DNA from: an uncultured delta proteobacterium
GTDB lineage: Bacteria; Desulfobacterota; RBG-13-43-22
Direction of reading: 5' to 3'
Assembly (NCBI GenBank): GCA_963769305.1
Contig: CAVYLJ010000041.1
Location: forward strand, 30,082 to 62,081
DNA length: 32,000 bases
Positions within the stretch are counted from its first letter, which is position 1. Each line of letters begins with the position of its first letter. The position numbers were made by a program, and so were the translations under genes. The notes beneath the pieces are model-generated. The model made no database searches. It was not told where the DNA came from and saw only the letters and a list, made by a program, of their open reading frames with translations. Shown in pieces: positions 7,143 to 19,375 of this stretch.

Positions 7143-9260
7143 TTAGACATCTCCCCTTTCCAGGCGGGCATAATCCAGGTGAAGGACCTTGGAGCCGTAG
7201 CGTTTAAAAAGGACGCGAACCTTTCTCTCCCGCGGGGGTTCCTGGATAACCCCATTGCCGAAAAGAGGGTGGAAGACCTTGGTCCCTTTTGAAAACCCGC
7301 TATCCTCTTCTTTTCGGATTTCATGAACATGGTCCGAATCCACCCGGGGCGGATGATTCGGGCCCGGTCTTCCTTGCCGGGCTAATATCTCTTCGGGAAT
7401 ATCGGCGATGAAGTGGCAGAGGTCGTTTTTCTGCCACCCCCCATCCCTTTGGGAGAGGGTGACCGGACAGGTCATAAAAAGTCTTTCTTTGGCCCGGGTG
7501 ATGGCCACATAAAGGAGCCGCCTTTCTTCTTCCATTTCCTCCGAGTCCATCTCGGCATGGGTGGAAGGAAACCGGCCTTCCGCCAGCCAGATGATGAAAA
7601 CGATCCTCCACTCCAGGCCCTTGGCCGAATGGACGGTAGACAGGGTCAACCGGTCCTTTTCAAGATCCTCATGTTCCTCATAGACCTCAAGGCTCAGGTC
7701 CCCCAACAAGGCCTCCGTTTCGGTGTAATTATAACTAACCCGGATGATTTCTTCGATCTCTTTCTGCCGGCGCTGCGGCTCTTCATACAGGCCGGGCATA
7801 AGATTTTTGTAGTAACCCCAGATCAATTCCAGGGCCTCGGTCGGAGTCTGGAGGGGTTGATCGACCAGGGCCTGGAAGAGGGCTGAAAAATCCACAAGTT
7901 GGGATTTAAGGCGGGGATATTGGGAAAGGCATTCCAGGCGTGAAGCCCAGTCCGGGCAGACGGCCATCCGCTCGACGATCTCCTGGGCCCTTTTGGGTCC
8001 CAACCCATCAAGAAGTTTCAGGATTCTTTCCCAGGCCAGTACGTCTTTGGGATTGTGGGCTGCTTTTAAGTACGACAGGAGGTCTTTAATATGGGCCCCC
8101 TCCACAAAGCGACGGCCCCCGTATTTTTTAAATGGGATGCCCTGCTTTTGAAGGGACACTTCCAGGTTAAAGGAATGATGGCCGGCCCGAAACAGGACGG
8201 CCATTTCCTGCCAGGGGATCCCCTGTCTATGAAATTCCTGAAGTTGCTGGGTCACATACTGGGATTGGGACTCTTCGTAAGGCACTTCGAGACAACGGGG
8301 CGGTTCCCCTGTTTTAATGCGGGTAAAGAGGCATTTACTATATCGCTCCTTAGAATAACTGATGACCTTATTGGCCAGGTTCAGGATCGGCTGGGAGCTG
8401 CGGAAGTTTTCCTCTAATTTGATCAGACGGGTTCCGGGATATTGGTTTGGAAAGTCCAGGATATTTTTAAAGTGGGCGCCCCGAAACCCGTAAATCGACT
8501 GGGAATCATCCCCGACTACCATGACATTTCCTCGGGCCAAATGGCGGACCATTTCGGCTTGGAGCAGATTGGTATCCTGGTATTCATCCACTAAAACATA
8601 CCGATAATAAGAGGCCAATTTTTGGGCTACCTGTGCTTCCTGCCTGAAAAGTTGCAGGCAATGACTCAGGAGATCGTCATAATCCAGTAAGCCGTGCTCT
8701 TTTTTGAAGGCTTCATACTCTTGATTCAGGTCCTTGAGCTGGGATGGAGATGGACCCGTTTCCAAAAATGAATCATAAAGCCCTTCTTCGAAGACCTGGC
8801 CCCGGTTGACGATACGACTCAAGAGCTCCAGGAATTCCTTTTTATCAGGCCGATCCTTGTTTTTATCCCAACCTTTCTGTTTGATGATCTTTCCGACGAT
8901 CTCTTCACTGTCTTTCCGGTCCAACACGGTCAACGGACTCCGGAGACCGATCGCCGCCCCATAAATCCTTAGGATTTTATAGGCCAAGGAATGAAACGTC
9001 CCGCCGGCCACTTCCTGACAGGACCGCTCCAGCATGAGTTCCACCCGGCGGAGCATCTCCTGGGAGGCCTTGCGGGTAAAGGTCAACAAAAGGATCCTCT
9101 CCGGTGGGATCCCATTTTCAACCAGCCAGGCCACCCGATAGACCAGGGTGCGGGTCTTTCCGCTTCCGGCCCCGGCAATGACCAAGGTAGGCCCGTCCGG
9201 TGAAAAGACCGCCTCCTGCTGGGCCTTGGTTAGATTTTTTTGATAATCGATTTTCCCCAT
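7143..9260 (-). CDS. UvrD/PcrA/Rep-family ATP-dependent DNA helicase
   Basis: Motif I is VIAGAGSGKTRTLVYR and motif II is VLVDEYQDTN. The C-terminal tail (GTKVFHPLFGNGVIQE...VLFKRYGSKVLHLDYARL) is typical of PcrA/UvrD. The 705-aa ORF is intact. Confidence 0.9.
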   Translation of the reverse strand: MGKIDYQKNLTKAQQEAVFSPDGPTLVIAGAGSGKTRTLVYRVAWLVENGIPPERILLLTFTRKASQEMLRRVELMLERSCQEVAGGTFHSLAYKILRIYGAAIGLRSPLTVLDRKDSEEIVGKIIKQKGWDKNKDRPDKKEFLELLSRIVNRGQVFEEGLYDSFLETGPSPSQLKDLNQEYEAFKKEHGLLDYDDLLSHCLQLFRQEAQVAQKLASYYRYVLVDEYQDTNLLQAEMVRHLARGNVMVVGDDSQSIYGFRGAHFKNILDFPNQYPGTRLIKLEENFRSSQPILNLANKVISYSKERYSKCLFTRIKTGEPPRCLEVPYEESQSQYVTQQLQEFHRQGIPWQEMAVLFRAGHHSFNLEVSLQKQGIPFKKYGGRRFVEGAHIKDLLSYLKAAHNPKDVLAWERILKLLDGLGPKRAQEIVERMAVCPDWASRLECLSQYPRLKSQLVDFSALFQALVDQPLQTPTEALELIWGYYKNLMPGLYEEPQRRQKEIEEIIRVSYNYTETEALLGDLSLEVYEEHEDLEKDRLTLSTVHSAKGLEWRIVFIIWLAEGRFPSTHAEMDSEEMEEERRLLYVAITRAKERLFMTCPVTLSQRDGGWQKNDLCHFIADIPEEILARQGRPGPNHPPRVDSDHVHEIRKEEDSGFSKGTKVFHPLFGNGVIQEPPRERKVRVLFKRYGSKVLHLDYARLERGDV

Positions 9261-9420
9261 ATACCTAAAGTCGCTTTTATCCTTCCCGACTATTTTTCCG
9301 AACTCGGAGATTAAACTCCAAACGGATATTTTTATTAATGCCCCGTCTTACTAAAAAAGGCCGGGACTGTAAACCTATAAATTAGGCTTGCGGCCGGCGG
9401 CTTCAAGAAAAATTTACCAT

Positions 9421-9449
9421 TTGACAACATCCCGCTGTAATCTTATAGT
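9421..9449 (+). promoter_or_regulatory. Sigma70-like promoter for the yedE-tusA-dsrE cluster
   Basis: TTGACA (9421-9426), 17-nt spacer, TATAGT (9444-9449), about 100 nt upstream of the yedE ATG and divergent from uvrD. Confidence 0.55.
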
Positions 9450-9549
9450 TTATCCAAATTTGAGATCCCCGGGGAATCTATCCCTTGTGAACAGGAATCT
9501 TGCCTGATCCCGATTGGCCTTCCGTTAAGAACCATAGAAAGGAAGGGTT

Positions 9550-10737
9550 ATGGCCGAGGAAAGCATCTTAAAGACAAAATTTCGGCAAGGATACAAGGCC
9601 CTTTTTTATCAACAATGGCCGCCCCTGACCGGGGGGGTATTATTAGGGCTCAGTAGCATCTTGATCGTTGCCTGGTCCAGACCGTGGGGTATCGTCGGAG
9701 GAATCCGTAATTGGGCTGACTGGCTTTTTTACGGCCTGGGTTTCTTTCCGGAACGCCCGGAGAACGCCTTCTTTTATTCTTCCTCGATTATGGATATCGG
9801 ATTTTTATTAGGGGCCTTCGGAGCGGCCCTCTTAGCCAAGGAGTTCGCCCTGAGAAAAACACCGGCCTTGGAGATCATAAAAGGGCTGGCCGGCGGGGTC
9901 TTCATGGGAATCGGCTCGGCCCTGGCCATGGGTTGCAATGTCGGGGCTTTTTATACCCCCTTGATCAACCTTTCGGCCAGCGGTTTCCCGATGCTGGTCG
10001 GACTGACCATCGGCGCTTTTATCGGTTTAAAATATCTTTTATGGGAACTGGAAAAATTCCCTCCCCCATCCGGATTTACACCCACGGCCTCTTTAGGAAA
10101 AAAAAGGGTTGATTGGAAGATTATCCAACCTTATTTAGGCACCCTGGTCTTTATTGGTTTGATCGTCTGGGCTTACTGGTATTCCGGAAAAGCCTATACG
10201 GAAATCGGCGGCCTCCTGCTCTTCGGTGCCGCTTTCGGAATCATCCTGCAGCGCTGCCGCTTTTGTTTTGTCCGAGCCTTTCGAGACCCTTTTATGACCG
10301 GAGAGGCGACCATCGCCAAGGCCATCGCCGTCAGTATTATCATCGGCGCCATAGGCGTAGCGGTTTTGAAATGGAGCGGATTTCGTCAGGAAAGCCTCTA
10401 TGTCATCCCGGCCTTCTGGTGGGGGTCGCTGGTGGGTGGCACCATATTCGGGATCGGAATGGTCATCGCCGGCGGATGCGGAAGCGGAACCTTGTGGCGG
10501 GTATCCGAAGGACAGCTTAAGCTCTGGGCGGCCCTTTTTACCTTTGCGACGACCAATTCCTTGATGAACGTCCTTCTCCGAACCACCGGCTGGCGTCAAA
10601 AATTGGGGAAGGCGGTATTTTTGCCCCAGACCTTCGGCTGGGGCGGAAGTATCCTCTTCATTGCCTTTATCCTGCTGATATGGTATCTATTAGTAACCTG
10701 GAATGAAGAGAGTAATAAATTCACAGTAGGATTATAA
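9550..10737 (+). CDS. YedE/YeeE-family sulfur (thiosulfate) transporter
   Basis: Polytopic membrane protein with two conserved Cys-loop motifs, GSALAMGCNVGAF and VIAGGCGSGTLWR, as in YeeE/YedE. It is followed by a TusA-like gene. Confidence 0.85.
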   Translation: MAEESILKTKFRQGYKALFYQQWPPLTGGVLLGLSSILIVAWSRPWGIVGGIRNWADWLFYGLGFFPERPENAFFYSSSIMDIGFLLGAFGAALLAKEFALRKTPALEIIKGLAGGVFMGIGSALAMGCNVGAFYTPLINLSASGFPMLVGLTIGAFIGLKYLLWELEKFPPPSGFTPTASLGKKRVDWKIIQPYLGTLVFIGLIVWAYWYSGKAYTEIGGLLLFGAAFGIILQRCRFCFVRAFRDPFMTGEATIAKAIAVSIIIGAIGVAVLKWSGFRQESLYVIPAFWWGSLVGGTIFGIGMVIAGGCGSGTLWRVSEGQLKLWAALFTFATTNSLMNVLLRTTGWRQKLGKAVFLPQTFGWGGSILFIAFILLIWYLLVTWNEESNKFTVGL

Positions 10738-10832: not shown

Positions 10833-11069
10833 ATGGAAGATATTAAACCCGATCAAACCTTGGATGCCCGGGGACTCAGTTGCCCCATGCCGGTTTTAAA
10901 AACCAAAAAGGCGATTGAGAATCTCAAGTCCGGAGAAATCCTGGAGGTCTTAGGAACCGATCCGGGGACCAGAAACGACATGCCCGGCTGGGCCAACCGC
11001 ACCGGGAACATTTACCTCGGGGAGAAAGAAGACCAAGGCTTTATTCGTTTTTACGTCAAGAAAAAGTAA
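10833..11069 (+). CDS. tusA: TusA/SirA-family sulfurtransferase
   Basis: 78 aa. LDARGLSCPMPVLKTKKAIENL carries the CPxP active-site motif. A strong RBS precedes the gene. Confidence 0.9.
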   Translation: MEDIKPDQTLDARGLSCPMPVLKTKKAIENLKSGEILEVLGTDPGTRNDMPGWANRTGNIYLGEKEDQGFIRFYVKKK

Positions 11070-11091: not shown

Positions 11092-11400
11092 ATGGCTGAA
11101 AAATTGGGGATTTTCGTTTCCTCCGATAAAAACCTCCGGCATGTGATCGGAATCACCAAAGCCGCCGAAGCGGCCGGCAAGGAAGTAGTCCTTTTTTTTA
11201 CCCACAAAGGGGTCCTGCTGACCCAGGTGCCGGAGTTCAAGGAGCTGATCGGCCACGGAAAAAAATCCTTGTGTAATGTGAGTTATGAATCCAAAGGATT
11301 GAAAGGGAAGCCAGCCCCTGGAATAGCAGAAAAAGATTTCGGCACTCAGGCCCGCCACGGGGAGATGATCGACGAAGTGGACCGTTATATCGTCCTGTAA
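11092..11400 (+). CDS. DsrE/DsrF-like family protein
   Basis: 102 aa. KLGIFVSSDKNLRHVIGITKAAEAAGKEVVLFFTHKGV has the DsrE-fold pattern. It lies directly after tusA. The family call is made by eye. Confidence 0.6.
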   Translation: MAEKLGIFVSSDKNLRHVIGITKAAEAAGKEVVLFFTHKGVLLTQVPEFKELIGHGKKSLCNVSYESKGLKGKPAPGIAEKDFGTQARHGEMIDEVDRYIVL

Positions 11401-11411
11401 AGGAGGAATCG

Positions 11412-11696
11412 ATGAAAAAGGTGGCCTTTTTGGTCAAAGACAAGGAGGAAGACTGGGAAGGGCTTCGCTCAACCCTGGGTTTGGCCGTAGAGAATAACTC
11501 GGTTTATTTCTTTGTCCTTGATCATGAAGTGGAAATGACCGAGCCTTTTCGCGAAAATCTGGATTGGGTCCTGGATATGGAGGGTGAATTATATTCCAAT
11601 GTTCCGGCCAATGTGGAGAAGCACGGGTTCCAACCCATCACCTATGAGGAATTGGGCGAGAAATTGAAAGAAATGGATTTTATCGTCCCCTTTTAA
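11412..11696 (+). CDS. Conserved hypothetical protein, fourth gene of the sulfur-trafficking cluster (possibly a DsrE-fold relative)
   Basis: 94-aa ORF with RBS AGGAGG and 11-nt spacing from the preceding stop. KKVAFLVKDKEEDWEGLRSTLGLAVENNSVYFFVLD resembles the DsrE/F/H fold pattern. Confidence 0.55.
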   Translation: MKKVAFLVKDKEEDWEGLRSTLGLAVENNSVYFFVLDHEVEMTEPFRENLDWVLDMEGELYSNVPANVEKHGFQPITYEELGEKLKEMDFIVPF

Positions 11697-11836: not shown

Positions 11837-12011
11837 ATGAAACTCTTACACATATATCGTTCCAAGCCAACCGAAGAAGTCCTTAAATTAGCCAAAATCC
11901 TTTCCGAGGGAAACGAGGCGGACAACTTTTTCTCTTTATGAAGGAGAGGTGGATTACGCCAAATTGGTGGAGCTTATCTTTTCCCATGATAAAGTCGTCA
12001 GTTGGTGGTAA
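11837..12011 (+). pseudogene. Small conserved hypothetical protein (about 58 aa), fifth gene of the cluster, with one +1 frame break at the T5 run near 11927-11938
   Basis: ATG at 11837 after GAGGTG gives MKLLHIYRSKPTEEVLKLAKILSEGNEADNFFSL then a stop. The +1 frame continues YEGEVDYAKLVELIFSHDKVVSWW to a stop at 12009-12011. Confidence 0.5.
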
Positions 12012-12156: not shown

Positions 12157-12723
12157 ATGCCTGAAAAAAACTTTTTAATAATCGGTCTGATGTTTATTCT
12201 GCTGATGGGATTGGGGATTCATGAATCCCAAGCCCAAGGGTCTCCATCCGGCCAAGCCTATTCCGTGAACCCGGAACTCTGCGCCCTCATGCTTCGCAAA
12301 GGGAAAGAATCCTTTACTCGGGGAAGGTACACCGAGGCCAAAGAATTGTTCCGTAAGGCCATACTGGCCGATCCCAACTCCCAAAAAGCCTGGTCCTATT
12401 ACGATCTGGCCCAGATGTATTCCGTAGCCGAGCAATTTAAAAATCACGGCCGCATCGTCCAATCCAGCGCCCCGCCCGCTGAACAAACCGCGGAAATGGC
12501 CCAACCCCAGACCACGGCCGCCCCGCCTCCGGCCATGAAAGAAAAAGGCAAAGGGATTCCGGCAAAAAAAGAAAAACCGGCAATCAGAAAAAAGGCCTCA
12601 GCCCCGAAAGAAACTCTCAAGGGGGAACCCTCCAAACCCGGAGCACCAAACCCTGTTCCAGCCCCCCCGGCCCCGACACCCGCTCCGGGAGGGTTTAAGA
12701 TTTTAAAGGATGAAGGTTGTTAA
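12157..12723 (+). CDS. Secreted protein: signal peptide, one TPR-like helical unit, long Pro/Ala/Lys-rich tail ending ...FKILKDEGC
   Basis: Signal peptide MPEKNFLIIGLMFILLMGLGIHESQAQG. TPR-like RGRYTEAKELFRKAILADPNSQKAWSYYDLAQMY. The low-complexity tail is about 85 aa, and Cys is the last residue before TAA. Confidence 0.7.
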   Translation: MPEKNFLIIGLMFILLMGLGIHESQAQGSPSGQAYSVNPELCALMLRKGKESFTRGRYTEAKELFRKAILADPNSQKAWSYYDLAQMYSVAEQFKNHGRIVQSSAPPAEQTAEMAQPQTTAAPPPAMKEKGKGIPAKKEKPAIRKKASAPKETLKGEPSKPGAPNPVPAPPAPTPAPGGFKILKDEGC

Positions 12724-12837
12724 TCGATATAGGTTTTCAGCAGAAAGGTAGGTGATATCGGCGGTTATATTTTAAAAAGAATTTAGGATGCTTATATAAT
12801 TTTGGTTCATATTTTAATAACTTATGGAGGATTTACG

Positions 12838-13413
12838 ATGAAAAGATTAATAATTTTGACCTCGGCGTTGTTTTTGCTTCTGGCCTTCGCAGGTTTCGGA
12901 ATGGCCCAGGATGTTTCCAAAGGAGAAAGTGCTTTTAAGGCGGATCTGGAAAAGGCTATTCCACCCGATAGAATTAAGACCATTGCCGACCTGCACAAAG
13001 TCTGGATGGATGTTCAAGCGGGAAAAAGCAAGGCCATCCTGATCGACGTCCGCACCAATCCTGAATTTGATGCCGGCCATATCGAGGGCACGAACCTCGT
13101 GACGTTGGCCCACGTATATACCTTGCCTAAACGTTTTCCGGATGCCAATGCGGAATACTGGATCTGGTGCCGAACCGACCATCGTTCCGCTTATTTCACC
13201 GCCATGATGTACAGATACGGCTATAAAAATGTCTATTGGGCCAAAGGCGGAGTCGTCGGCTGGATGAAAGCGGGATACCCTTTGGTAAACCGTTTCATGG
13301 GCCGCTTTAAAGTGGAAGAATACGGCCATCCTTTTAAGGAAAAAGGTCCGATTAAAGACAGAGAGTTTGTCGACTATAAATCCTATTATAAGGAATGCAT
13401 TCCTCAGGAATAG
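12838..13413 (+). CDS. Periplasmic single-domain rhodanese (sulfurtransferase)
   Basis: Signal peptide MKRLIILTSALFLLLAFAGFGMAQD from the ATG at 12838 after GGAGG. ILIDVRTNPEFDAGHIEGTNLV plus active-site loop CRTDHRS. Confidence 0.85.
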   Translation: MKRLIILTSALFLLLAFAGFGMAQDVSKGESAFKADLEKAIPPDRIKTIADLHKVWMDVQAGKSKAILIDVRTNPEFDAGHIEGTNLVTLAHVYTLPKRFPDANAEYWIWCRTDHRSAYFTAMMYRYGYKNVYWAKGGVVGWMKAGYPLVNRFMGRFKVEEYGHPFKEKGPIKDREFVDYKSYYKECIPQE

Positions 13414-13435
13414 CCTATCGGAACCTGTTCGGTTA

Positions 13436-13470
13436 AAGGAGGGGTTAATTTCCGCCCCTCCTTTCTTTTT
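13436..13470 (+). terminator. Rho-independent terminator after the rhodanese gene
   Basis: Stem AAGGAGGGG / CCCCTCCTT with a 10-nt loop, followed by TCTTTTT. Confidence 0.8.
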
Positions 13471-13553: not shown

Positions 13554-13594
13554 TTGACAATCCATTATCTCCAAAACTATATTACTATATAGTT
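13554..13594 (+). promoter_or_regulatory. Promoter (TTGACA at 13554-13559) with an overlapping 8-4-8 inverted repeat AACTATAT-TACT-ATATAGTT (13575-13594), a probable repressor operator
   Basis: Read directly. The same module, cttgacaat...aaactatattacYatataSttatt, recurs at 28513-28552 and 28731-28770. Confidence 0.65.
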
Positions 13595-13655: not shown

Positions 13656-14732
13656 ATGAACGAATCCGTTTCCTGTGAATGTATTCAAACAACCGGTGGT
13701 AAGTTAGATCCAATAAGCCTGAGGAAAAAACTGGTTATTTTGCCGGTGTCCTTTATAGCCTGGTGGATTATCTACCACCAACTGCCCATGGTAACCGGGT
13801 GGGTGACCTATCATTTGTTCAGCCTTGGCAGAGGTACTCATTTGGGCGAGGCTGTCGCCTTTTTTCTTTATGATGTTCCCAAGGTCCTGATGCTCCTGAT
13901 CCTGGTCGTTTTTGGAGTCGGTCTTTTGCGCTCTTTCTTTACCCCGGAAAAGACCAGGGCCATTTTGGCCGGTAAAAAGGAATCGGTCGGAAATGTCCTG
14001 GCCGCCGGCCTGGGAATCGCCACCCCTTTCTGCACCTGCTCGGCCATCCCCCTCTTTATCGGCTTTGTCGAGGCCGGGGTACCCCTCGGGGTAACGCTGT
14101 CTTTTTTGATCTCCGCCCCCATGGTCAATGAGATCGCCCTGGTCCTTTTGTTCGGCCTTTTCGGATGGAAAGTGGCCGCCCTCTACCTATCCACCGGACT
14201 GGTAATCGCCATGGTCAGCGGCTGGGTCATCGGCCGGTTGCACATGGAGAACCATATCGAAGATTGGGTCAGGGAAATCAGGACCAACGGCTCCCCGATG
14301 TTCATGGAAACACTAAACTGGTCGGGTCGGATCGATTATGCCTGGCAGGCGGTCAAGGATATCGTCGGCAAGGTCTGGATCTATGTTGTGGCCGGTATCG
14401 CCGTCGGGGCGGCCATCCACGGCTACGTACCCGTCGGTTTTATGGCCTCCATCATGGGCAAAGAGGCCTGGTGGTCGGTTCCCTTGGCCGTCATGTTGGG
14501 GGTTCCCATGTATTCCAATGCCGCCGGGATCATCCCGATTGTTCAGGCCCTTCTGGAAAAAGGGGCGGCCCTGGGCACGGTGCTGGCCTTCATGATGGCG
14601 GTCATCGGACTCTCCTTGCCGGAAACCATCATCCTCCGAAAGGTCTTGAAACCACGGCTCATTGCCGTCTTTGTCGGCGTGGTGGCTACGGGCATTCTTC
14701 TGGTGGGTTTTCTCTTTAATGCCCTTCTGTAA
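13656..14732 (+). CDS. UPF0718/ArsP-like permease (predicted permease family with CxC motif)
   Basis: 358-aa polytopic protein. ATPFCTCSAIPLFIGFVEAGVPLGVTLSFLISAPMVNE matches the conserved Cys-containing loop of the ArsP/YraQ-type permease family. Confidence 0.8.
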   Translation: MNESVSCECIQTTGGKLDPISLRKKLVILPVSFIAWWIIYHQLPMVTGWVTYHLFSLGRGTHLGEAVAFFLYDVPKVLMLLILVVFGVGLLRSFFTPEKTRAILAGKKESVGNVLAAGLGIATPFCTCSAIPLFIGFVEAGVPLGVTLSFLISAPMVNEIALVLLFGLFGWKVAALYLSTGLVIAMVSGWVIGRLHMENHIEDWVREIRTNGSPMFMETLNWSGRIDYAWQAVKDIVGKVWIYVVAGIAVGAAIHGYVPVGFMASIMGKEAWWSVPLAVMLGVPMYSNAAGIIPIVQALLEKGAALGTVLAFMMAVIGLSLPETIILRKVLKPRLIAVFVGVVATGILLVGFLFNALL

Positions 14733-14780
14733 AGTTTTTTCTTGACTTTAAGAGGAAACAATATAACTATATAATCCATT

Positions 14781-15116
14781 ATGGAAAAATCAGGAAAGAT
14801 GAATCAAAAAATATTGGAAGGCCAGGCCTCGATCCTCAAGGCCCTGGGTCAGCCCACCCGACTGCAAATTCTGGAATTGCTTAAGGAAGGCGAACGGTGC
14901 GTCTGTGAAATTTTCCCGGCCATCTCCCAGGAACAGGCCAATGTCTCCAAGCATCTTTCCATCTTGAAACAGGTCGGGATTCTGGAGTCCCGGAAAGAGG
15001 GCCTGCGTATCCTTTACCGGATAAAAACCCCTGAAATTTTGAACTTGCTGAGCGGGGTTTCCAAGCTCTTAAAAGCCCAGGCCCAGGAGCAGCATAAGTT
15101 AATGACTCGTTTATAA
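14781..15116 (+). CDS. ArsR/SmtB-family metalloregulator
   Basis: ILKALGQPTRLQILELLKEGERCVCEI...ANVSKHLSILKQVGILESRKEGLRILYRI is a winged HTH with a CVC metal(loid) site. The start could instead be the ATG at 14799. Confidence 0.9.
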   Translation: MEKSGKMNQKILEGQASILKALGQPTRLQILELLKEGERCVCEIFPAISQEQANVSKHLSILKQVGILESRKEGLRILYRIKTPEILNLLSGVSKLLKAQAQEQHKLMTRL

Positions 15117-15129
15117 AATTTTTTTTGAG

Positions 15130-15154
15130 TATATGATTACTAATTATTCATATA
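15130..15154. promoter_or_regulatory. ArsR/SmtB-type operator-like inverted repeat ATATGA-N11-TCATAT upstream of the CDF gene
   Basis: tatatgattactaattattcatata, 18 nt upstream of the CDF ATG. It resembles the imperfect TGA..TCA repeats bound by SmtB/CzrA-type repressors. Confidence 0.55.
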
Positions 15155-15171
15155 GTTAATGAGTATTTTTT

Positions 15172-16113
15172 ATGGAACCCCATCATCATAATCATGACTC
15201 CGAAGCCTCCTGGGGTAAACGCCTGTTCGTCACCATGGTGATGAACCTGATTATCCCGGCTGTTCAGATCGTGGCCGGCATCATGGCCGGCAGTATGGCC
15301 CTGATCAGCGATGCCCTGCACAACCTGAGTGATTTCGCTTCCATCCTGATCAGCTATATGGCCTTAAAAATCGGAAAACGCGGTCCCACGCTTTCCCTGA
15401 CCTTCGGCTATAAACGGGTGGAGGTCATGGCCGCAGTCTTCAATACGGCCCTCCTCTTCGGGGCCGCCCTGTTCATCGCTGTGGAAGGCTGGATTCGTTT
15501 AAAAAATCCGGTTTTGATTCGGGGAAACATGGTCATTTGGGCCGCCCTCCTGGGTGTTATCGCCAATGGCATATCGACCTGGATGCTCCACGCCGGGGCC
15601 AAAGAAAACCTCAACATGCGCGGGGCCTTTCTCCATATGTTGACCGATGCCCTGACTTCCCTCGGAGTGGCCGTACTGGGCGTGGTCTGGCTGCTCCGTC
15701 CCTGGTACTGGCTTGATCCCATCGTATCCTGGGTTATCGTAGCCCTGATCCTTTACAGCGGCTGGGGTATTTTAAAACAAGCCCTGCTCATCTTGATGAA
15801 CGCCACCCCGCCGGGTATCGACCTGGAGGCCATACAAAAAGAAGTAGTATCCCTGGGGGGGATAGAGGATCTTCATCATCTTCATGTCTGGAACCCCTCC
15901 TCCGGGACCATCGCCCTGGCGGCCCATGTCATCGTGCCGGACCAGATGCTTTGCCAGGTGGACGAGTTGGCTAAAAAAGTGCGGGACCTGCTCTTATCTA
16001 AATTCAACATCAATCATCCCATCCTTCAATTTGAGAGCAAGTCTTATGAACCCGTGGATTTACTATGCACGATATGTAAGGACAACCATTCTTCAGAAAC
16101 AAGTGCTCAGTAA
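15172..16113 (+). CDS. czcD: Cation diffusion facilitator (CzcD/ZitB-like Zn/Co/Cd exporter)
   Basis: His-rich N-terminus MEPHHHNHD. TM2 motif ALISDALHNLSDF and TM5 motif AFLHMLTDALTSLGV. Cytoplasmic C-terminal domain with HHLHVW. Confidence 0.9.
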   Translation: MEPHHHNHDSEASWGKRLFVTMVMNLIIPAVQIVAGIMAGSMALISDALHNLSDFASILISYMALKIGKRGPTLSLTFGYKRVEVMAAVFNTALLFGAALFIAVEGWIRLKNPVLIRGNMVIWAALLGVIANGISTWMLHAGAKENLNMRGAFLHMLTDALTSLGVAVLGVVWLLRPWYWLDPIVSWVIVALILYSGWGILKQALLILMNATPPGIDLEAIQKEVVSLGGIEDLHHLHVWNPSSGTIALAAHVIVPDQMLCQVDELAKKVRDLLLSKFNINHPILQFESKSYEPVDLLCTICKDNHSSETSAQ

Positions 16114-16125
16114 GGAGGCCTTATT

Positions 16126-16359
16126 ATGGAAATCAAAATACTCGGACCCGGATGTCCCAGATGCGGGCAAACGGAAAAAATCGTCAAGGAGACTGTAGCC
16201 GAGGCCGGCGTGGAGGCCACGGTTGAAAAAATTACCGATGTGATGCAAATCATGACCTATCGAGTCATGGGCACCCCGGCGGTGGTCGTGGACGGCCAGG
16301 TGATGTCGGTGGGCAAGGTCCCCAAGAAAAAAGAGATTCTTGCCTGGATAAAAAAATAG
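16126..16359 (+). CDS. Small thioredoxin-fold protein (redox-active disulfide protein 2 / Thioredoxin_3 type)
   Basis: 77 aa. MEIKILGPGCPRCGQTEKIV carries a CxxC motif, and ...GTPAVVVDGQ follows. In my recollection this family commonly accompanies ArsR plus the UPF0718 permease. Confidence 0.85.
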   Translation: MEIKILGPGCPRCGQTEKIVKETVAEAGVEATVEKITDVMQIMTYRVMGTPAVVVDGQVMSVGKVPKKKEILAWIKK

Positions 16360-16391
16360 CCCAGGTAAAGCCGATACAAAAAGGAAAATCT

Positions 16392-17315
16392 ATGGCTCCC
16401 GGCAAACCACTATCCGTTAAACTGTTTTTCATCCTGCCGTTCCTACTCCTGTCTTTATTGGTCTTATTTGACGCCCAGGCCGGTCAAACCATCGATGAGC
16501 TTTATCCTGGACTGGCTTCCGACTCCCTTAAGTCAGCAAAACTCACCAGGCTGCCTAAAGGAACCCTTTTGACCTCCAGGAGTCTGATCATAAAAGAATC
16601 GGAACTTACCAGGGAGATCAACCAATCGGACCCGGCATTACGTAAACAACTTATTAGAAATGCCTTTTATCTTCTGGAAAAAATGGCCACCAGTCGGTTG
16701 GTCCTTCAGGAAGCCCATAAAGCAGGATATAAACTGGGAGATGAAGAAGATAAGACAATCACGAAGTTTCTCTCTGAAAAGGTAAAGCCCGGCACCATAT
16801 CCGATGAGGAATTAAGGAATTTTTATACCCAGAACAAAGGGATGATCGGGAGTGCTTCTTTTGAAGAGACTCGTGACCTGTTGAAGTATCTTTTAGCACA
16901 ACAAAAAATCCAGGAGGCCCAGCGTCATTACGTCCAAACTCTCTTTCAGCAAGCATCCATCCAGCTTAATGAAGACTGGGTAAAAAAACAAAGCACCCTT
17001 TCCCGAGACAACCCGGTAGACCGGGCCAGGACGTCCGGCAAACCGAGCTTGATCGACTTTGGATCAACCGGCTGCGGGCCCTGTGACATGATGACCCCCA
17101 TATTAGCCGACCTGGAGAAAAAATATAAAGACAAGTTAAACGTCCTTTTCGTCCATGTGAACCAGGAAGTGATTTTAACGGCTCGTTTCGGGATCAAATA
17201 CATACCGGTTCAGGTGTTCTTTGACAAAAACGGCCGGGAGGTTTTCAGGCATACCGGCTTTTTCCCCCAAACGGAGATCGAAAAGCAACTGGCCCGGATG
17301 GGCATCGCCAACTGA
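16392..17315 (+). CDS. Secreted two-domain protein: helical N-terminal domain (SurA/PpiD-N-like by eye) fused to a thioredoxin domain (CGPC)
   Basis: Signal peptide MAPGKPLSVKLFFILPFLLLSLLVLFDAQAG. C-terminal domain LIDFGSTGCGPCDMMTPILADLEKKYKDKLNVLFVHV...IPVQVFFDKNGREVFRHTGF. Confidence 0.75.
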   Translation: MAPGKPLSVKLFFILPFLLLSLLVLFDAQAGQTIDELYPGLASDSLKSAKLTRLPKGTLLTSRSLIIKESELTREINQSDPALRKQLIRNAFYLLEKMATSRLVLQEAHKAGYKLGDEEDKTITKFLSEKVKPGTISDEELRNFYTQNKGMIGSASFEETRDLLKYLLAQQKIQEAQRHYVQTLFQQASIQLNEDWVKKQSTLSRDNPVDRARTSGKPSLIDFGSTGCGPCDMMTPILADLEKKYKDKLNVLFVHVNQEVILTARFGIKYIPVQVFFDKNGREVFRHTGFFPQTEIEKQLARMGIAN

Positions 17316-17319
17316 TCCG

Positions 17320-18239
17320 ATGTCATCTTTAACTTTTAGAACCTTTCCTTTCCTCCTCCTTAGTGCCTTGATGGTTTTTTTGAACAGGGACCTTCAAGCC
17401 CAAAGTTCAAAGACCATAGCAGAGAATTATCCCTTCCTGGGTGCTTACGCCCTGCCCGATGCGGTGTTGAGCAAATTAAAACCCGGCATCCTTTTAGTTT
17501 CCGATAAAGTCATCATAAAAGAATCGGAGGTCCTGTCCGAGATTCGCCGATCCGATCAGGCCATCCGTGGTCAATTACGAAAAAATGCCTTTTATGTCCT
17601 GGAAAAGATGGCGGCCGATCGGCTCCTTCTGCGGGAAGCTTTGGCCCATGGAGAACAAAGGCAAGGCCCGGCAAAAGAAATCGTTGCCCGTTATCTCGAT
17701 CAAAAATTTAAAGACCTGACCGTATCCGAGGAAGAACTCCGGCAGTACTACCAGGACAACAAACATATGCTCGGCGATCCCGACCTGGATCCTCTCAAGG
17801 AATCCCTGCGGGACTTCCTGAAAGAACAGAAAAAACAAAAGGCCATTCGGCATTATATTATAACCCTTGGGCAAAGAAGGCTCATCCGGGTCAATGAAGA
17901 CTGGGTAAAAAAACAGAACATCCTGGCCAAAGAAAACCCGGTTGATCGTCTCAGGATGGCCGGAAAACCGGCCTTGGTCCTTTTCGGGGCCATGGGCGAG
18001 TGCCCCTGTGATATGGTCTCTCCCATATCTGATCGATCTGGGCGAAAAATATAAAAGCCGGATTAGAGGTCCTTATTATTTCCCTGCGTGAAGAAAGGAT
18101 CCTGGCAGACCGGTATGGGGTGAAAACCATCCCTGATCTTATTTTTTTCGACCGAAAGGGCCGGGAAATATTTCGCCACGTGGGGTTTCTGCCTGAAAGG
18201 GCAATCGAAGAAAAACTGAAGCAATTCGGACTGATTTGA
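17320..18239 (+). pseudogene. Paralog of 16392-17315 with two +1 frame breaks (near 18025 and 18065) and a degenerate redox motif (ECPC instead of CGPC)
   Basis: MSSLTFRTFPFLLLSALMVFLNRDLQAQ..., and the domain order is colinear with the upstream paralog. Frame 1 runs to CDMVSPI, frame 2 reads LIDLGEKYKSRI, and frame 3 reads EVLIISLREERILADRYGVKTIPDLIFFDRKGREIFRHVGFLPERAIEEKLKQFGLI. Confidence 0.7.
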
Positions 18240-18257
18240 AAGGAAGGAAAATTAAAA

Positions 18258-18646
18258 ATGAACAACTGGCTCTTATCGAAAAATCGGGGTTGTGCTCCTG
18301 ATCGGATTTTTATTTTTGGTGGGAGCCCAACCATCCTGGGCCGGCAGCTTATAAAGAGGTCCCGGTCAAAGGCATGGTAACCCTGGTTGACCTGGGGGCC
18401 AATGCCTGCATTCCCTGCAAGATGATGGCACCCATCATGACCAAGCTGGAGAAGGATTATCAGGGCAAGGCGGCCGTCGTTTTTATTGACGTCTGGAAGT
18501 TCCCGGAACAGGCCAAACCTTTCAATATTCAGGTCATACCGACCCAGATTTTCTATGATAAAACCGGCAAAGAAGTCTTCCGTCATGAAGGGTTTATGAG
18601 CGAGAAAGATATTGTCAGCCAATTAAAAAAGATGGGGGTCAAATAA
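18258..18646 (+). pseudogene. Short periplasmic TlpA/ResA-like thioredoxin, with two +1 frame breaks in the signal-peptide region as sequenced
   Basis: ATG at 18258 gives MNNWLLSK (frame A). Frame B reads KIGVVLLIGFLFLVGAQPSWAG. Frame C reads AAYKEVPVKGMVTLVDLGANACIPCKMMAPIMTKLEKDY..., which is track ORF 18374-18646. Confidence 0.7.
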
Positions 18647-18670
18647 TCTTTAAGGTCAGGTGAGGTTTCA

Positions 18671-19375
18671 ATGCTGGAAAATATTTTTCTGACCGTCAAT
18701 GACTGGCTTATCGGGGAACCCTACATCGCCGCCCTGGGGGCCTTTTTCTGGGGCATGATCAGCGTGGTCTTCAGCCCCTGCCATCTGGCCTCCATCCCGT
18801 TGATCGTGGCCTATGTGGGCGGGCAGGAAAAGACGGTCCTGGCCCGGCAGGCCGGATACTACTCCGTGGCCTTTACCTCCGGACTGTTTATCACCATCGC
18901 CCTGATCGGCATCATCTGTTCCCTTCTGGGACGTATGCTGGGCGATGTGGGCAACTACTGGCAGATCCTTATCGGGTTGATCCTGATCTGGGTGGCCCTG
19001 GGGATGCTGGGGGTCGAGAAATGTTCCATGTCCGGGAGCTTATTATACCGGCTGAATTTAAAAGGCATCTTTGGGGCCTTTGTCCTGGGTCTGGCCTATG
19101 GGGTGCTTTCCGGGTCCTGCACCTTCGGCTTTATCGCCCCTATCCTGGCCATCATCACAGTTCAAGAAAAGGTGGCCACCGGGATCCTGTTGATTTTGCT
19201 GTTCGCCGTCGGCCATTGCCTGCCCATCGTGATCGCCGGCAGTTCGACGGCCGCCGTCCGTAAAGTCATCGAAAACCAGTCCTGGCAGACCGGCGGCCAG
19301 TGGTTCCGCCGCGGGGCCGGGGTGCTCATCGTGTTGCTGGGCCTTTATTTTATTGTCAATCCTTTTATTACCTAA
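18671..19375 (+). CDS. ccdA: CcdA/DsbD-type transmembrane thiol-disulfide electron transporter
   Basis: Six-TM protein with the two conserved membrane Cys (VFSPCHLASIPL and LSGSCTFGFIAP). Confidence 0.85.
   Translation: MLENIFLTVNDWLIGEPYIAALGAFFWGMISVVFSPCHLASIPLIVAYVGGQEKTVLARQAGYYSVAFTSGLFITIALIGIICSLLGRMLGDVGNYWQILIGLILIWVALGMLGVEKCSMSGSLLYRLNLKGIFGAFVLGLAYGVLSGSCTFGFIAPILAIITVQEKVATGILLILLFAVGHCLPIVIAGSSTAAVRKVIENQSWQTGGQWFRRGAGVLIVLLGLYFIVNPFIT

Follow-up and report, generated by a model that had tools for sequence, protein, structure and literature searches.

A predicted exported protein family with a terminal cysteine linked to YedE–TusA–DsrEFH type II sulfur-relay clusters

Introduction

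How sulfur reaches YeeE/YedE channels from outside is a stated gap. In H. denitrificans, it is proposed that sulfur carried on the C-terminal-arm cysteine of SoxY enters the cell through the YeeE-like protein SoxT1 and passes to TusA, a rhodanese and DsrE3C, with the periplasmic hand-off to SoxT1 taking place 'by unknown means' and neighbouring periplasmic thioredoxins being invoked (PMC11582611, 2024). The YeeE–YeeD pair (TsuA–TsuB; 6LEO, 8J4C) combines a channel of the same family, with three cysteines, and a TusA-like cytoplasmic partner, and no periplasmic partner of it has been described. YedE is also encoded in YTD clusters (yedE–tusA–dsrEFH type II), which in the published descriptions comprise five genes or '2-3 conserved proteins', all of them cytoplasmic or membrane-bound (Umezawa 2020; PMC13293266, PMC13047784, PMC9751629). 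The last three of these genes were recast as DsrEFH type II in two 2026 papers, and sulfur transfer from TusA through DsrEFH type II to DsrC has been shown in vitro (PMC13293266). Genes for DsrEFH type II have been reported in 985 genomes. Here we analyse 32,000 nucleotides of DNA from an uncultured delta proteobacterium (the window; contig CAVYLJ010000041.1, positions 30,082 to 62,081), in which a YTD cluster is followed by genes for a predicted exported tetratricopeptide repeat (TPR)-like protein whose last residue is cysteine and for a predicted exported rhodanese.

The family to which the TPR-like protein belongs is unnamed and large, and is not the oddity of one lineage. It is best explained as an extracytoplasmic accessory of the YTD sulfur-relay cluster, which would thereby gain one or two extracytoplasmic genes. 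The evidence for the family and its role is computational throughout. Whereas the upstream YTD genes are published, the YTD/YeeE literature that we searched contains no mention of an exported TPR/terminal-cysteine protein or of a linked exported rhodanese, in agreement with a preliminary description of this DNA that knew of no described system of this kind.

A protein family that ends in cysteine

The family gene of the window (12157..12723, + strand) encodes 188 amino acids (aa) plus stop. Its first 27 residues (12157..12237, ending HESQA before QG) have the features of a signal peptide: Lys4, a 16-residue hydrophobic core, an SQA/QG junction, a 15-aa Kyte–Doolittle maximum of 2.83 and a helix at residues 4–19 in the AlphaFold2 (AF2) model. 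The pattern is kept across the family, and export is predicted from sequence alone. A three-helix TPR-like domain follows (aa 38–102, 12268..12462), delimited by sub-threshold Pfam matches, alignments, AF2 and a profile match. A linker of 75 aa (aa 103–177, 12463..12687; 25% P, 20% A, 15% K, 8% E), predicted to be disordered from its composition and by AF2, then leads to the conserved C-terminal motif GGFKILKDEGC-COOH (aa 178–188, 12688..12720), in which the codon of the terminal cysteine is TGT (12718–12720) and the stop codon is TAA. The protein has two cysteines, C188 and C42, the latter at the start of helix 1.

These features largely match the preliminary description, whose reading frame, signal peptide and terminal KDEGC are all borne out. 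The low-complexity arm that it put at about 85 aa is present but shorter, and its single TPR-like unit is recovered as a three-helix domain by AF2 and profile matching, although the Pfam scores over residues 46–74 are sub-threshold (TPR_2, 21.5 bits against a gathering threshold of 27; TPR_1, 21.3 against 27.8). Precomputed TPR matches are present in a few homologs. The preliminary description had also warned that indel errors in this DNA might have produced the stop codon. A frameshift does occur in the neighbouring dsrH-II gene, but the family gene is unaffected and its stop is genuine, because the tail is kept in hundreds of homologs.

A sequence search returned 56 close relatives, mostly labelled Thermodesulfobacteriota or 'delta proteobacterium', together with two 'Bacillota' bins; the latter labels may reflect mis-binning or gene transfer, since the YedE proteins of these bins are about 70% identical to that of the window. 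Among these close homologs conservation is strong in the TPR-like domain but not in the linker, and the tail PGGxKILKDEGC is kept, with the final cysteine in at least 90%. A profile search extended the family to 585 clusters at E ≤ 1e-10, labelled in the source only as 'hypothetical' or 'TPR repeat protein'. An exhaustive profile search added dozens of small proteins (105–230 aa) with a signal peptide, the same domain and an acidic-Gly-Cys ending; the large TPR proteins that it also returned were treated as noise. Tail variants include FKIVDDEGC, EEEEEGC and DMDGC, with a few GCY, around the consensus F-x-I-x-[DE]-D-E-G-C-COOH.

To avoid circularity, we counted tails among small proteins that match a hidden Markov model of the domain only. 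Cysteine lies within the last two residues in 228 of 246 such proteins (the ending is GC in 223, GCx in 3 and xC in 2), and the other 18 are mostly truncated. The conservation of the terminal cysteine, on which the preliminary description had staked its proposal, thus stands. Every complete member in 80 loci from a metagenome scan ends in EGC. Conversely, an E-G-C C terminus occurs in 96 of the 5080 open reading frames (ORFs) of the collected loci, of which 95 are family members and one is a tail-only ORF.

In alignments of 55 and 114 non-redundant members, G49, R55, A68, W79 and Y82 (window numbering) are invariant and R47, A61, F65, D72, A78 and D83 nearly so. The linker is poorly conserved and varies in length between 17 and 109 aa. 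Mean net charge is +2.9 for the domain and −2.2 for the last eight residues. At position 42, 79% of members have Cys and 16% have Ser.

The tail-only ORF (L002, 9510–9752) follows the rhodanese gene of its locus and encodes 80 aa, with a signal peptide, a Pro/Ala linker and the ending VKILKDEGC but without the TPR-like domain. A search with it for homologs found none, and it may be the remnant of a partial duplication. Lipoprotein anchoring was considered for the family and is not general, because a lipobox-like L-[AV]-[VG]-C motif is found in only a few members (P0036, P0037, P0041 and P0046). In D. dissulfuricans, GF1_30680, which may or may not encode a family member, precedes yedE (GF1_30690) and is absent from the proteome tables examined for this organism.

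Linkage to YedE across rearranged loci

We examined the surroundings of the family gene (X in the gene orders below) in 85 non-redundant loci, using family searches on all ORFs and a range of 5 kb. The 80 loci from the metagenome scan are biased towards one subgroup, because the scan patterns were derived from 13 sequences of that subgroup, and the counts are lower bounds, because many contigs are short. yedE lies within 5 kb of X in 55 of the 85 loci, and in 44 it comes immediately after X on the same strand. tusA is found within the same range in up to 51 loci, a figure that includes some spurious labels: in a clade without yedE, some 'tusA' labels are alternate-frame ORFs and others are real TusA genes. 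Parts of dsrEFH-II occur in 31–35 loci and a rhodanese in 26. Of the 40 loci in which X is flanked on each side by at least 1 kb, 31 have yedE within 5 kb of it. The linkage to sulfur genes is therefore very strong, and it is independent of gene order. All the in silico checks by which the preliminary description proposed to refute its own idea were carried out, and none went against it.

The dominant layout is X–yedE–tusA–dsrEFH-II, and some loci read rhodanese–X–yedE. The clade of the window has the order yedE–tusA–dsrEFH-II–X–rhodanese; it has shifted X and the rhodanese gene to the 3′ end of the cluster. Among the close homologs, X directly follows a 57-aa gene in every locus with enough flank, and a rhodanese of the window type comes next in seven distinct loci (L001, L002, L003, which is the contig of L010, L008, L011, L012 and L013); at L004, which is the contig of L015, the locus has no rhodanese. 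The closest relatives are collinear over the whole neighbourhood, including LptD, Mpl and UvrD. In L005 and L006, and in the 'Bacillota' bins, the seven-gene unit is kept between different flanking genes. In these bins X is followed by another type of exported rhodanese, which has a Cu_amine_oxidN1 domain and a CYTAHT loop and is 24% identical to the window type over 76 residues.

Further afield, at 27–35% identity, family members remain in linked loci. L020 combines X–yedE with divergent arsR and arsP, L021 reads X–yedE–tusA followed by small genes, and in L022 two tandem-domain rhodaneses precede X. Across the wider family the rhodanese is often absent or on the other side of X, and the exported rhodaneses that adjoin family members belong to at least five unrelated architectures. 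Because the link between X and the sulfur genes survives both rearranged gene order and this turnover of rhodaneses, it appears to be functional and not merely inherited, and linkage across such rearrangements is good evidence of functional coupling.

Predicted structure and comparison with known carriers

AF2 models the window protein as three helices of moderate confidence with the remainder disordered. For the short member P0081, modelled with 114 sequences, the helices span residues 37–52, 56–69 and 74–94 at a predicted local distance difference test score (pLDDT) of 89–98. A Foldseek search of the PDB with the AF2 model returned generic TPR matches only, with none at E ≤ 1e-3; consensus TPRs superpose with a root-mean-square deviation of 0.6 Å over 44–49 residues (E ≥ 0.06). 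The family profile likewise matches consensus-TPR (CTPR) structures at profile positions 58–89. The domain is thus predicted to adopt a TPR fold of 1.5 repeats, and the models contain no known carrier fold.

The preliminary description compared the protein to SoxY. The comparison holds as an analogy: the SoxYZ–SoxT1 system (H. denitrificans; PMC11582611) also joins a carrier with a cysteine at the end of an arm, a three-cysteine YeeE/YedE channel and receivers of the TusA, rhodanese and DsrE types, with periplasmic thioredoxins and a DsbD-like supply of reductant nearby. Fold and motif both differ, however. SoxY is a β-sandwich that ends in GGCGG, requires SoxZ and is loaded by SoxXA and SoxB, whereas the family protein is predicted to be all-helical and TPR-like, with a long disordered spacer and an E-G-C end in which cysteine comes last. 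It matches neither SoxY nor SoxZ in Pfam or NCBIfam, and no sox genes (SoxZ, SoxXA or SoxB) were seen in the neighbourhood. Membership of the SoxY family is ruled out by the all-helical model and the DEGC tail.

DsrC/TusE offers a second likeness, with a flexible C-terminal arm on which a strictly conserved cysteine beside glycine carries sulfur between partners, and with a second cysteine that can form a bridged species. DsrC is cytoplasmic, however, and has an unrelated fold, a penultimate cysteine and an arm of about 10 residues, against 25–120 low-complexity residues in the family. Membership of DsrC/TusE is excluded by the signal peptide, by the position of the cysteine (last in 223 of 246 proteins, penultimate in 3) and by the absence of a DsrC match in Pfam or NCBIfam. 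The Asp-Glu-Gly-Cys-COOH tail also has the same three residue types as glutathione.

A candidate tethered-thiol carrier for YedE

We consider it about an even bet (probability roughly 0.5) that the family protein is a tethered-thiol carrier that presents sulfane sulfur to YedE. The terminal thiol, on its flexible tether, would accept sulfane sulfur and hold it as a persulfide or polysulfide. The source would be polysulfide or elemental sulfur itself, or else the adjoining exported rhodanese, which would transfer sulfur to the thiol. The TPR-like domain would dock the protein on YedE or on the rhodanese, and the anionic tail (Asp, Glu and the terminal carboxylate) would enter the outward vestibule of YedE and deliver sulfur to the three-cysteine relay. 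In the cytoplasm TusA would receive the sulfur and pass it through DsrEFH type II to DsrC. In the window, a periplasmic thioredoxin fusion and a DsbD_TM protein encoded downstream could keep the thiol reduced, as SoxS/SoxV do for SoxY; their genes are not conserved across the family. We infer export, persulfidation of the tail cysteine and its loading by the rhodanese, as well as the contact of the protein with YedE and the direction in which sulfur flows.

More tentatively, the family as a whole may be an unrecognised class of extracytoplasmic carrier that threads sulfane sulfur into YedE and supplies the missing entry step of the YedE–TusA–DsrEFH type II pathway, drawing on polysulfide, on elemental sulfur or on rhodaneses outside the membrane, of which a few would be selenoproteins or cytochrome fusions. 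It is a concrete candidate for the step by which sulfur gains access to these channels in sulfate reducers, in organisms that disproportionate sulfur and in relatives of both. If so, it would provide a periplasmic entry for sulfur oxidation or disproportionation in Desulfobacterota and other anaerobes, and a second, independently evolved 'cysteine on a swinging arm' that is not homologous to SoxY.

Several observations weigh against this carrier proposal. A rhodanese is found in only 17 of the 40 well-flanked loci, so the adjacency to a rhodanese that the preliminary description made central holds in part: the rhodanese is secondary to YedE, which is the most constant partner, with TusA and DsrEFH type II next. 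In nine of the 40 loci, all of one clade, neither yedE nor a rhodanese is present and X lies between Mpl and an HdrD-like gene, in several cases followed by TusA. A mechanism that uses two cysteines is not general, because position 42 is Cys in only 79% of members. The acidic neighbours of the terminal cysteine should raise the pKa of its thiol, which is unusual for a nucleophilic carrier cysteine. One natural variant, P0031 (L007, 8001–8561), is apparently complete and ends in GGIKSQEEGG without cysteine, on a contig that ends 52 bp further on. AF2 leaves the tail unplaced (pLDDT 55–65) and so offers no structural support for docking. An arsR or arsP gene lies within 5 kb of X in 8–9 of the 85 loci. 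All family members found, finally, come from metagenome-assembled genomes (MAGs) or metagenomes.

The likeliest alternative, although we think it improbable, is that the family carries no sulfur and acts as a docking or gating adaptor. The TPR-like domain and the tail would then both be protein–protein interaction modules; the F-x-I-x-DDEGC tail would plug or tether to YedE or the rhodanese, perhaps by forming a reversible mixed disulfide with one of the channel cysteines, and would thereby regulate the channel or help to assemble it. Peptide binding is a classic role of TPR domains, and the Foldseek neighbours include TPRs that bind the acidic C termini of Hsp70/Hsp90, although these matches are generic and non-significant. 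The pairing of a basic domain with an acidic extreme C terminus recalls the TPR 'carboxylate clamp' of Hop, Tah1 and CTPR390, which receives the EEVD-COOH of Hsp70/Hsp90; the family differs in having 1.5 repeats and no predicted docking in cis, and its ligand would end in cysteine. The alternating hydrophobic residues of F-x-I-x resemble a strand-addition motif, and the linkage of X to yedE is tighter than its linkage to rhodaneses. What speaks for thiol chemistry instead is that the invariant feature is a last-residue cysteine and not merely an acidic tail. The AF2 models do not confidently place the acidic tail against the basic domain in cis, and the tail-only ORF of L002, a single case, suggests that the tail can act alone.

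Less probable still is a periplasmic scavenger or buffer that does not feed YedE directly: the thiol tail would capture reactive polysulfide, shielding the envelope or keeping sulfur in solution, and a DsbD/thioredoxin system would recycle it. Genes for periplasmic thioredoxins and DsbD_TM do lie a few kilobases downstream, both in the window and in related loci, and reductant supply of the SoxS/SoxV type to SoxY is a known precedent. These genes are absent, however, at L005, L006 and most loci of the wider family, and a mere buffer needs no place immediately upstream of yedE, such as X has in 44 loci.

Binding of a metal, metalloid or selenium we regard as improbable, at a level below that of a buffer. 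D-E-G-C-COOH would then chelate As, Cu, Zn or Cd, or carry selenium, together with ArsR, ArsP_1, CDF or a selenium YedE. Genes for ArsP_1, ArsR (with a CVC motif), CDF and Thioredoxin_3 proteins lie directly downstream in the window, and arsR or arsP genes adjoin X in about 9 of the 85 loci, including divergent pairs (L020, L031 and L032), which leaves some room for a metal or metalloid role. The window YedE also scores on the selenium YedE/FdhT model, although below its cut-off (153.7 against 350 bits), and several neighbouring rhodaneses appear to be selenoproteins. Against this, a terminator and a separate promoter divide the rhodanese gene from the ArsP gene in the window, L005 and L006 have no metal genes in their context, the dominant partners (tusA and dsrEFH type II) carry sulfur in vitro, and a single cysteine among carboxylates would be a weak site for soft metals.

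That X is an unrelated envelope TPR protein inherited beside sulfur genes in one lineage would fit the collinearity of the closest relatives but is effectively refuted, as the linkage outlasts changes of gene order, strand context and flanks, spans members at 27–35% identity and places yedE within 5 kb of X in 31 of 40 well-flanked loci.

The gene cluster of the window

The five genes upstream of X, all on the + strand, fit the published YTD cluster in order and size, and in most loci X belongs physically to a cluster of this kind. A σ70-like promoter (9421..9449; TTGACA, 17 nt, TATAGT; 11 of 12 positions, a consensus match only) stands ahead of yedE as the putative start of a seven-gene unit. 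yedE (9550..10737) encodes a 395-aa membrane protein of the YedE/YeeE family (Pfam Sulf_transp, 6e-53) with the channel cysteine motifs MGCNVG, RCRFCF and GGCGSG. It is followed by a 78-aa TusA sulfur carrier with a CPMP motif (10833..11069; Pfam TusA, 1.3e-25; NCBIfam TusA, 3.9e-16), by a 102-aa DsrE-like subunit of DsrEFH type II (11092..11400), assigned by a weak Pfam DsrE match and by a position and size as in the published cluster, and by a conserved 94-aa protein (11412..11696; Chp, or DsrF-like subunit of DsrEFH type II) whose orthologs are 66–96% identical and hold the same position in related loci. The position of the family and rhodanese genes directly downstream of YedE, TusA and DsrE genes, as the preliminary description had it, is upheld by these matches and the shared strand.

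The fifth gene (11837..12011), for a conserved 57-aa DsrH-like protein, is frameshifted by one extra T in the T-run 11927–11931. As it stands it reads EADNFFSL, then a stop and DYAKLVELIFSHDKVVSWW; deletion of one T gives EADNFSLYEGEVDYAKLV, which matches L001–L003, and the 57-aa ORF is intact in its relatives. The split reflects either a sequencing error in the homopolymer or recent decay to a pseudogene.

The window YedE aligns to S. thermophila YeeE (6LEO) with all three channel cysteine motifs kept, but its two homologous halves match both YeeE and the Pfam model in exchanged order: residues 223–330 correspond to YeeE 6–112, and residues 43–154 to YeeE 214–318. This suggests an arrangement that is permuted relative to TsuA.

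Directly after X, the gene at 12838..13413 (+ strand) encodes a predicted exported single-domain rhodanese of 191 aa. Its ORF was listed from a TTG at 12802; the true start is the ATG at 12838 (MKRLIIL), because this start and the signal-peptide-like N terminus that follows are common to the orthologs. The N terminus, MKRLIILTSALFLLLAFAGFGMA before QD, has signal-peptide features and a 15-aa hydropathy maximum of 2.75, and is likewise kept in orthologs. The domain scores 48.2 bits against Pfam PF00581 (cut-off 22.2), and the catalytic loop, described earlier as an intact CRTDHRS, is indeed C111-RTDHRS (Cys111 codon 13168–13170), of which C-R-T-x-x-R is kept in orthologs. A conserved extension of 40–50 aa, beginning NRFMGRFKVEEYGHPFKE, closes the protein and its orthologs. 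Scores against the NCBIfam models for PspE, GlpE, TsoB and the LYCAU selenoprotein are all far below the cut-offs. Like the window protein, whose export is predicted, Sud of Wolinella and PspE of E. coli are single-domain rhodaneses with one catalytic cysteine; they are exported and bind or transfer periplasmic sulfane or polysulfide sulfur. The window protein differs in falling below all named NCBIfam cut-offs and in its C-terminal extension. No partner resembling the tail protein is known for either Sud or PspE.

A hairpin like that of an intrinsic terminator (13435..13464, + strand; an 11-bp stem and then a T-run, a consensus match only) marks the putative end of the unit, and a second strong promoter-like site (13554–13583, also a consensus match only) stands ahead of the gene for an ArsP-type permease. 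Because of the placement of these promoters and the terminator, the run of seven genes that starts with yedE and ends with the rhodanese gene looks like one unit, set apart from the metal-type genes downstream. Beyond the terminator, 13656–19375 encodes an ArsP_1-type permease, an ArsR protein with the motif ERCVCEI, a CDF transporter, a Thioredoxin_3 protein, an exported thioredoxin fusion of 307 aa (16392–17315) and the DsbD_TM protein (18671–19375).

Variant loci and candidate selenoproteins

Some loci depart from the layouts described above. The MAG JAFDHS01 has two copies of yedE–tusA–dsrEFH-II–X–rhodanese on separate contigs (L012 and L013), and in both X has a short linker and ends in FRIVDDEGC. 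In L014, from a 'Bacillota' MAG, X is followed by a 419-aa protein (8781–10040) that combines Cu_amine_oxidN1, a rhodanese domain (CYTAHT) and four CxxCH haem motifs with a weak NrfH-like match; such a fusion would couple an exported rhodanese to a cytochrome. In L009 (776–1482) a deletion joins X, cut within its linker, to rhodanese remnants, and the result is either a decayed copy or an assembly artefact.

A three-domain exported rhodanese is encoded just upstream of X in L098 (4549–5886) and in L103, L101, L099, L067, L059 and L061. All seven genes have an in-frame TGA in the first active-site region (FYCGGPT-TGA-GMSPK or FYCEGMR-TGA-VLSP), with a conserved hairpin about 16–20 nt past it (CGCC-GGUCU-GGCG) that resembles a bacterial selenocysteine insertion sequence. 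From these features the proteins are probably selenoproteins with a Cys-x4-Sec pair. Their first domain resembles the N terminus of the TsoB selenoprotein, with a score far below the cut-off.

In the clade without yedE, the gene convergent with X encodes an HdrD-like CCG-domain protein that also contains an in-frame TGA (LLLPE-TGA-GHAYYA; L049, 3641–4942, and L056, 6443–7741, both on the − strand) and is probably a selenocysteine form. An HdrD-like paralog of the same cluster (L065) reads MPDCGGGSYG at what is apparently the corresponding CCG motif.

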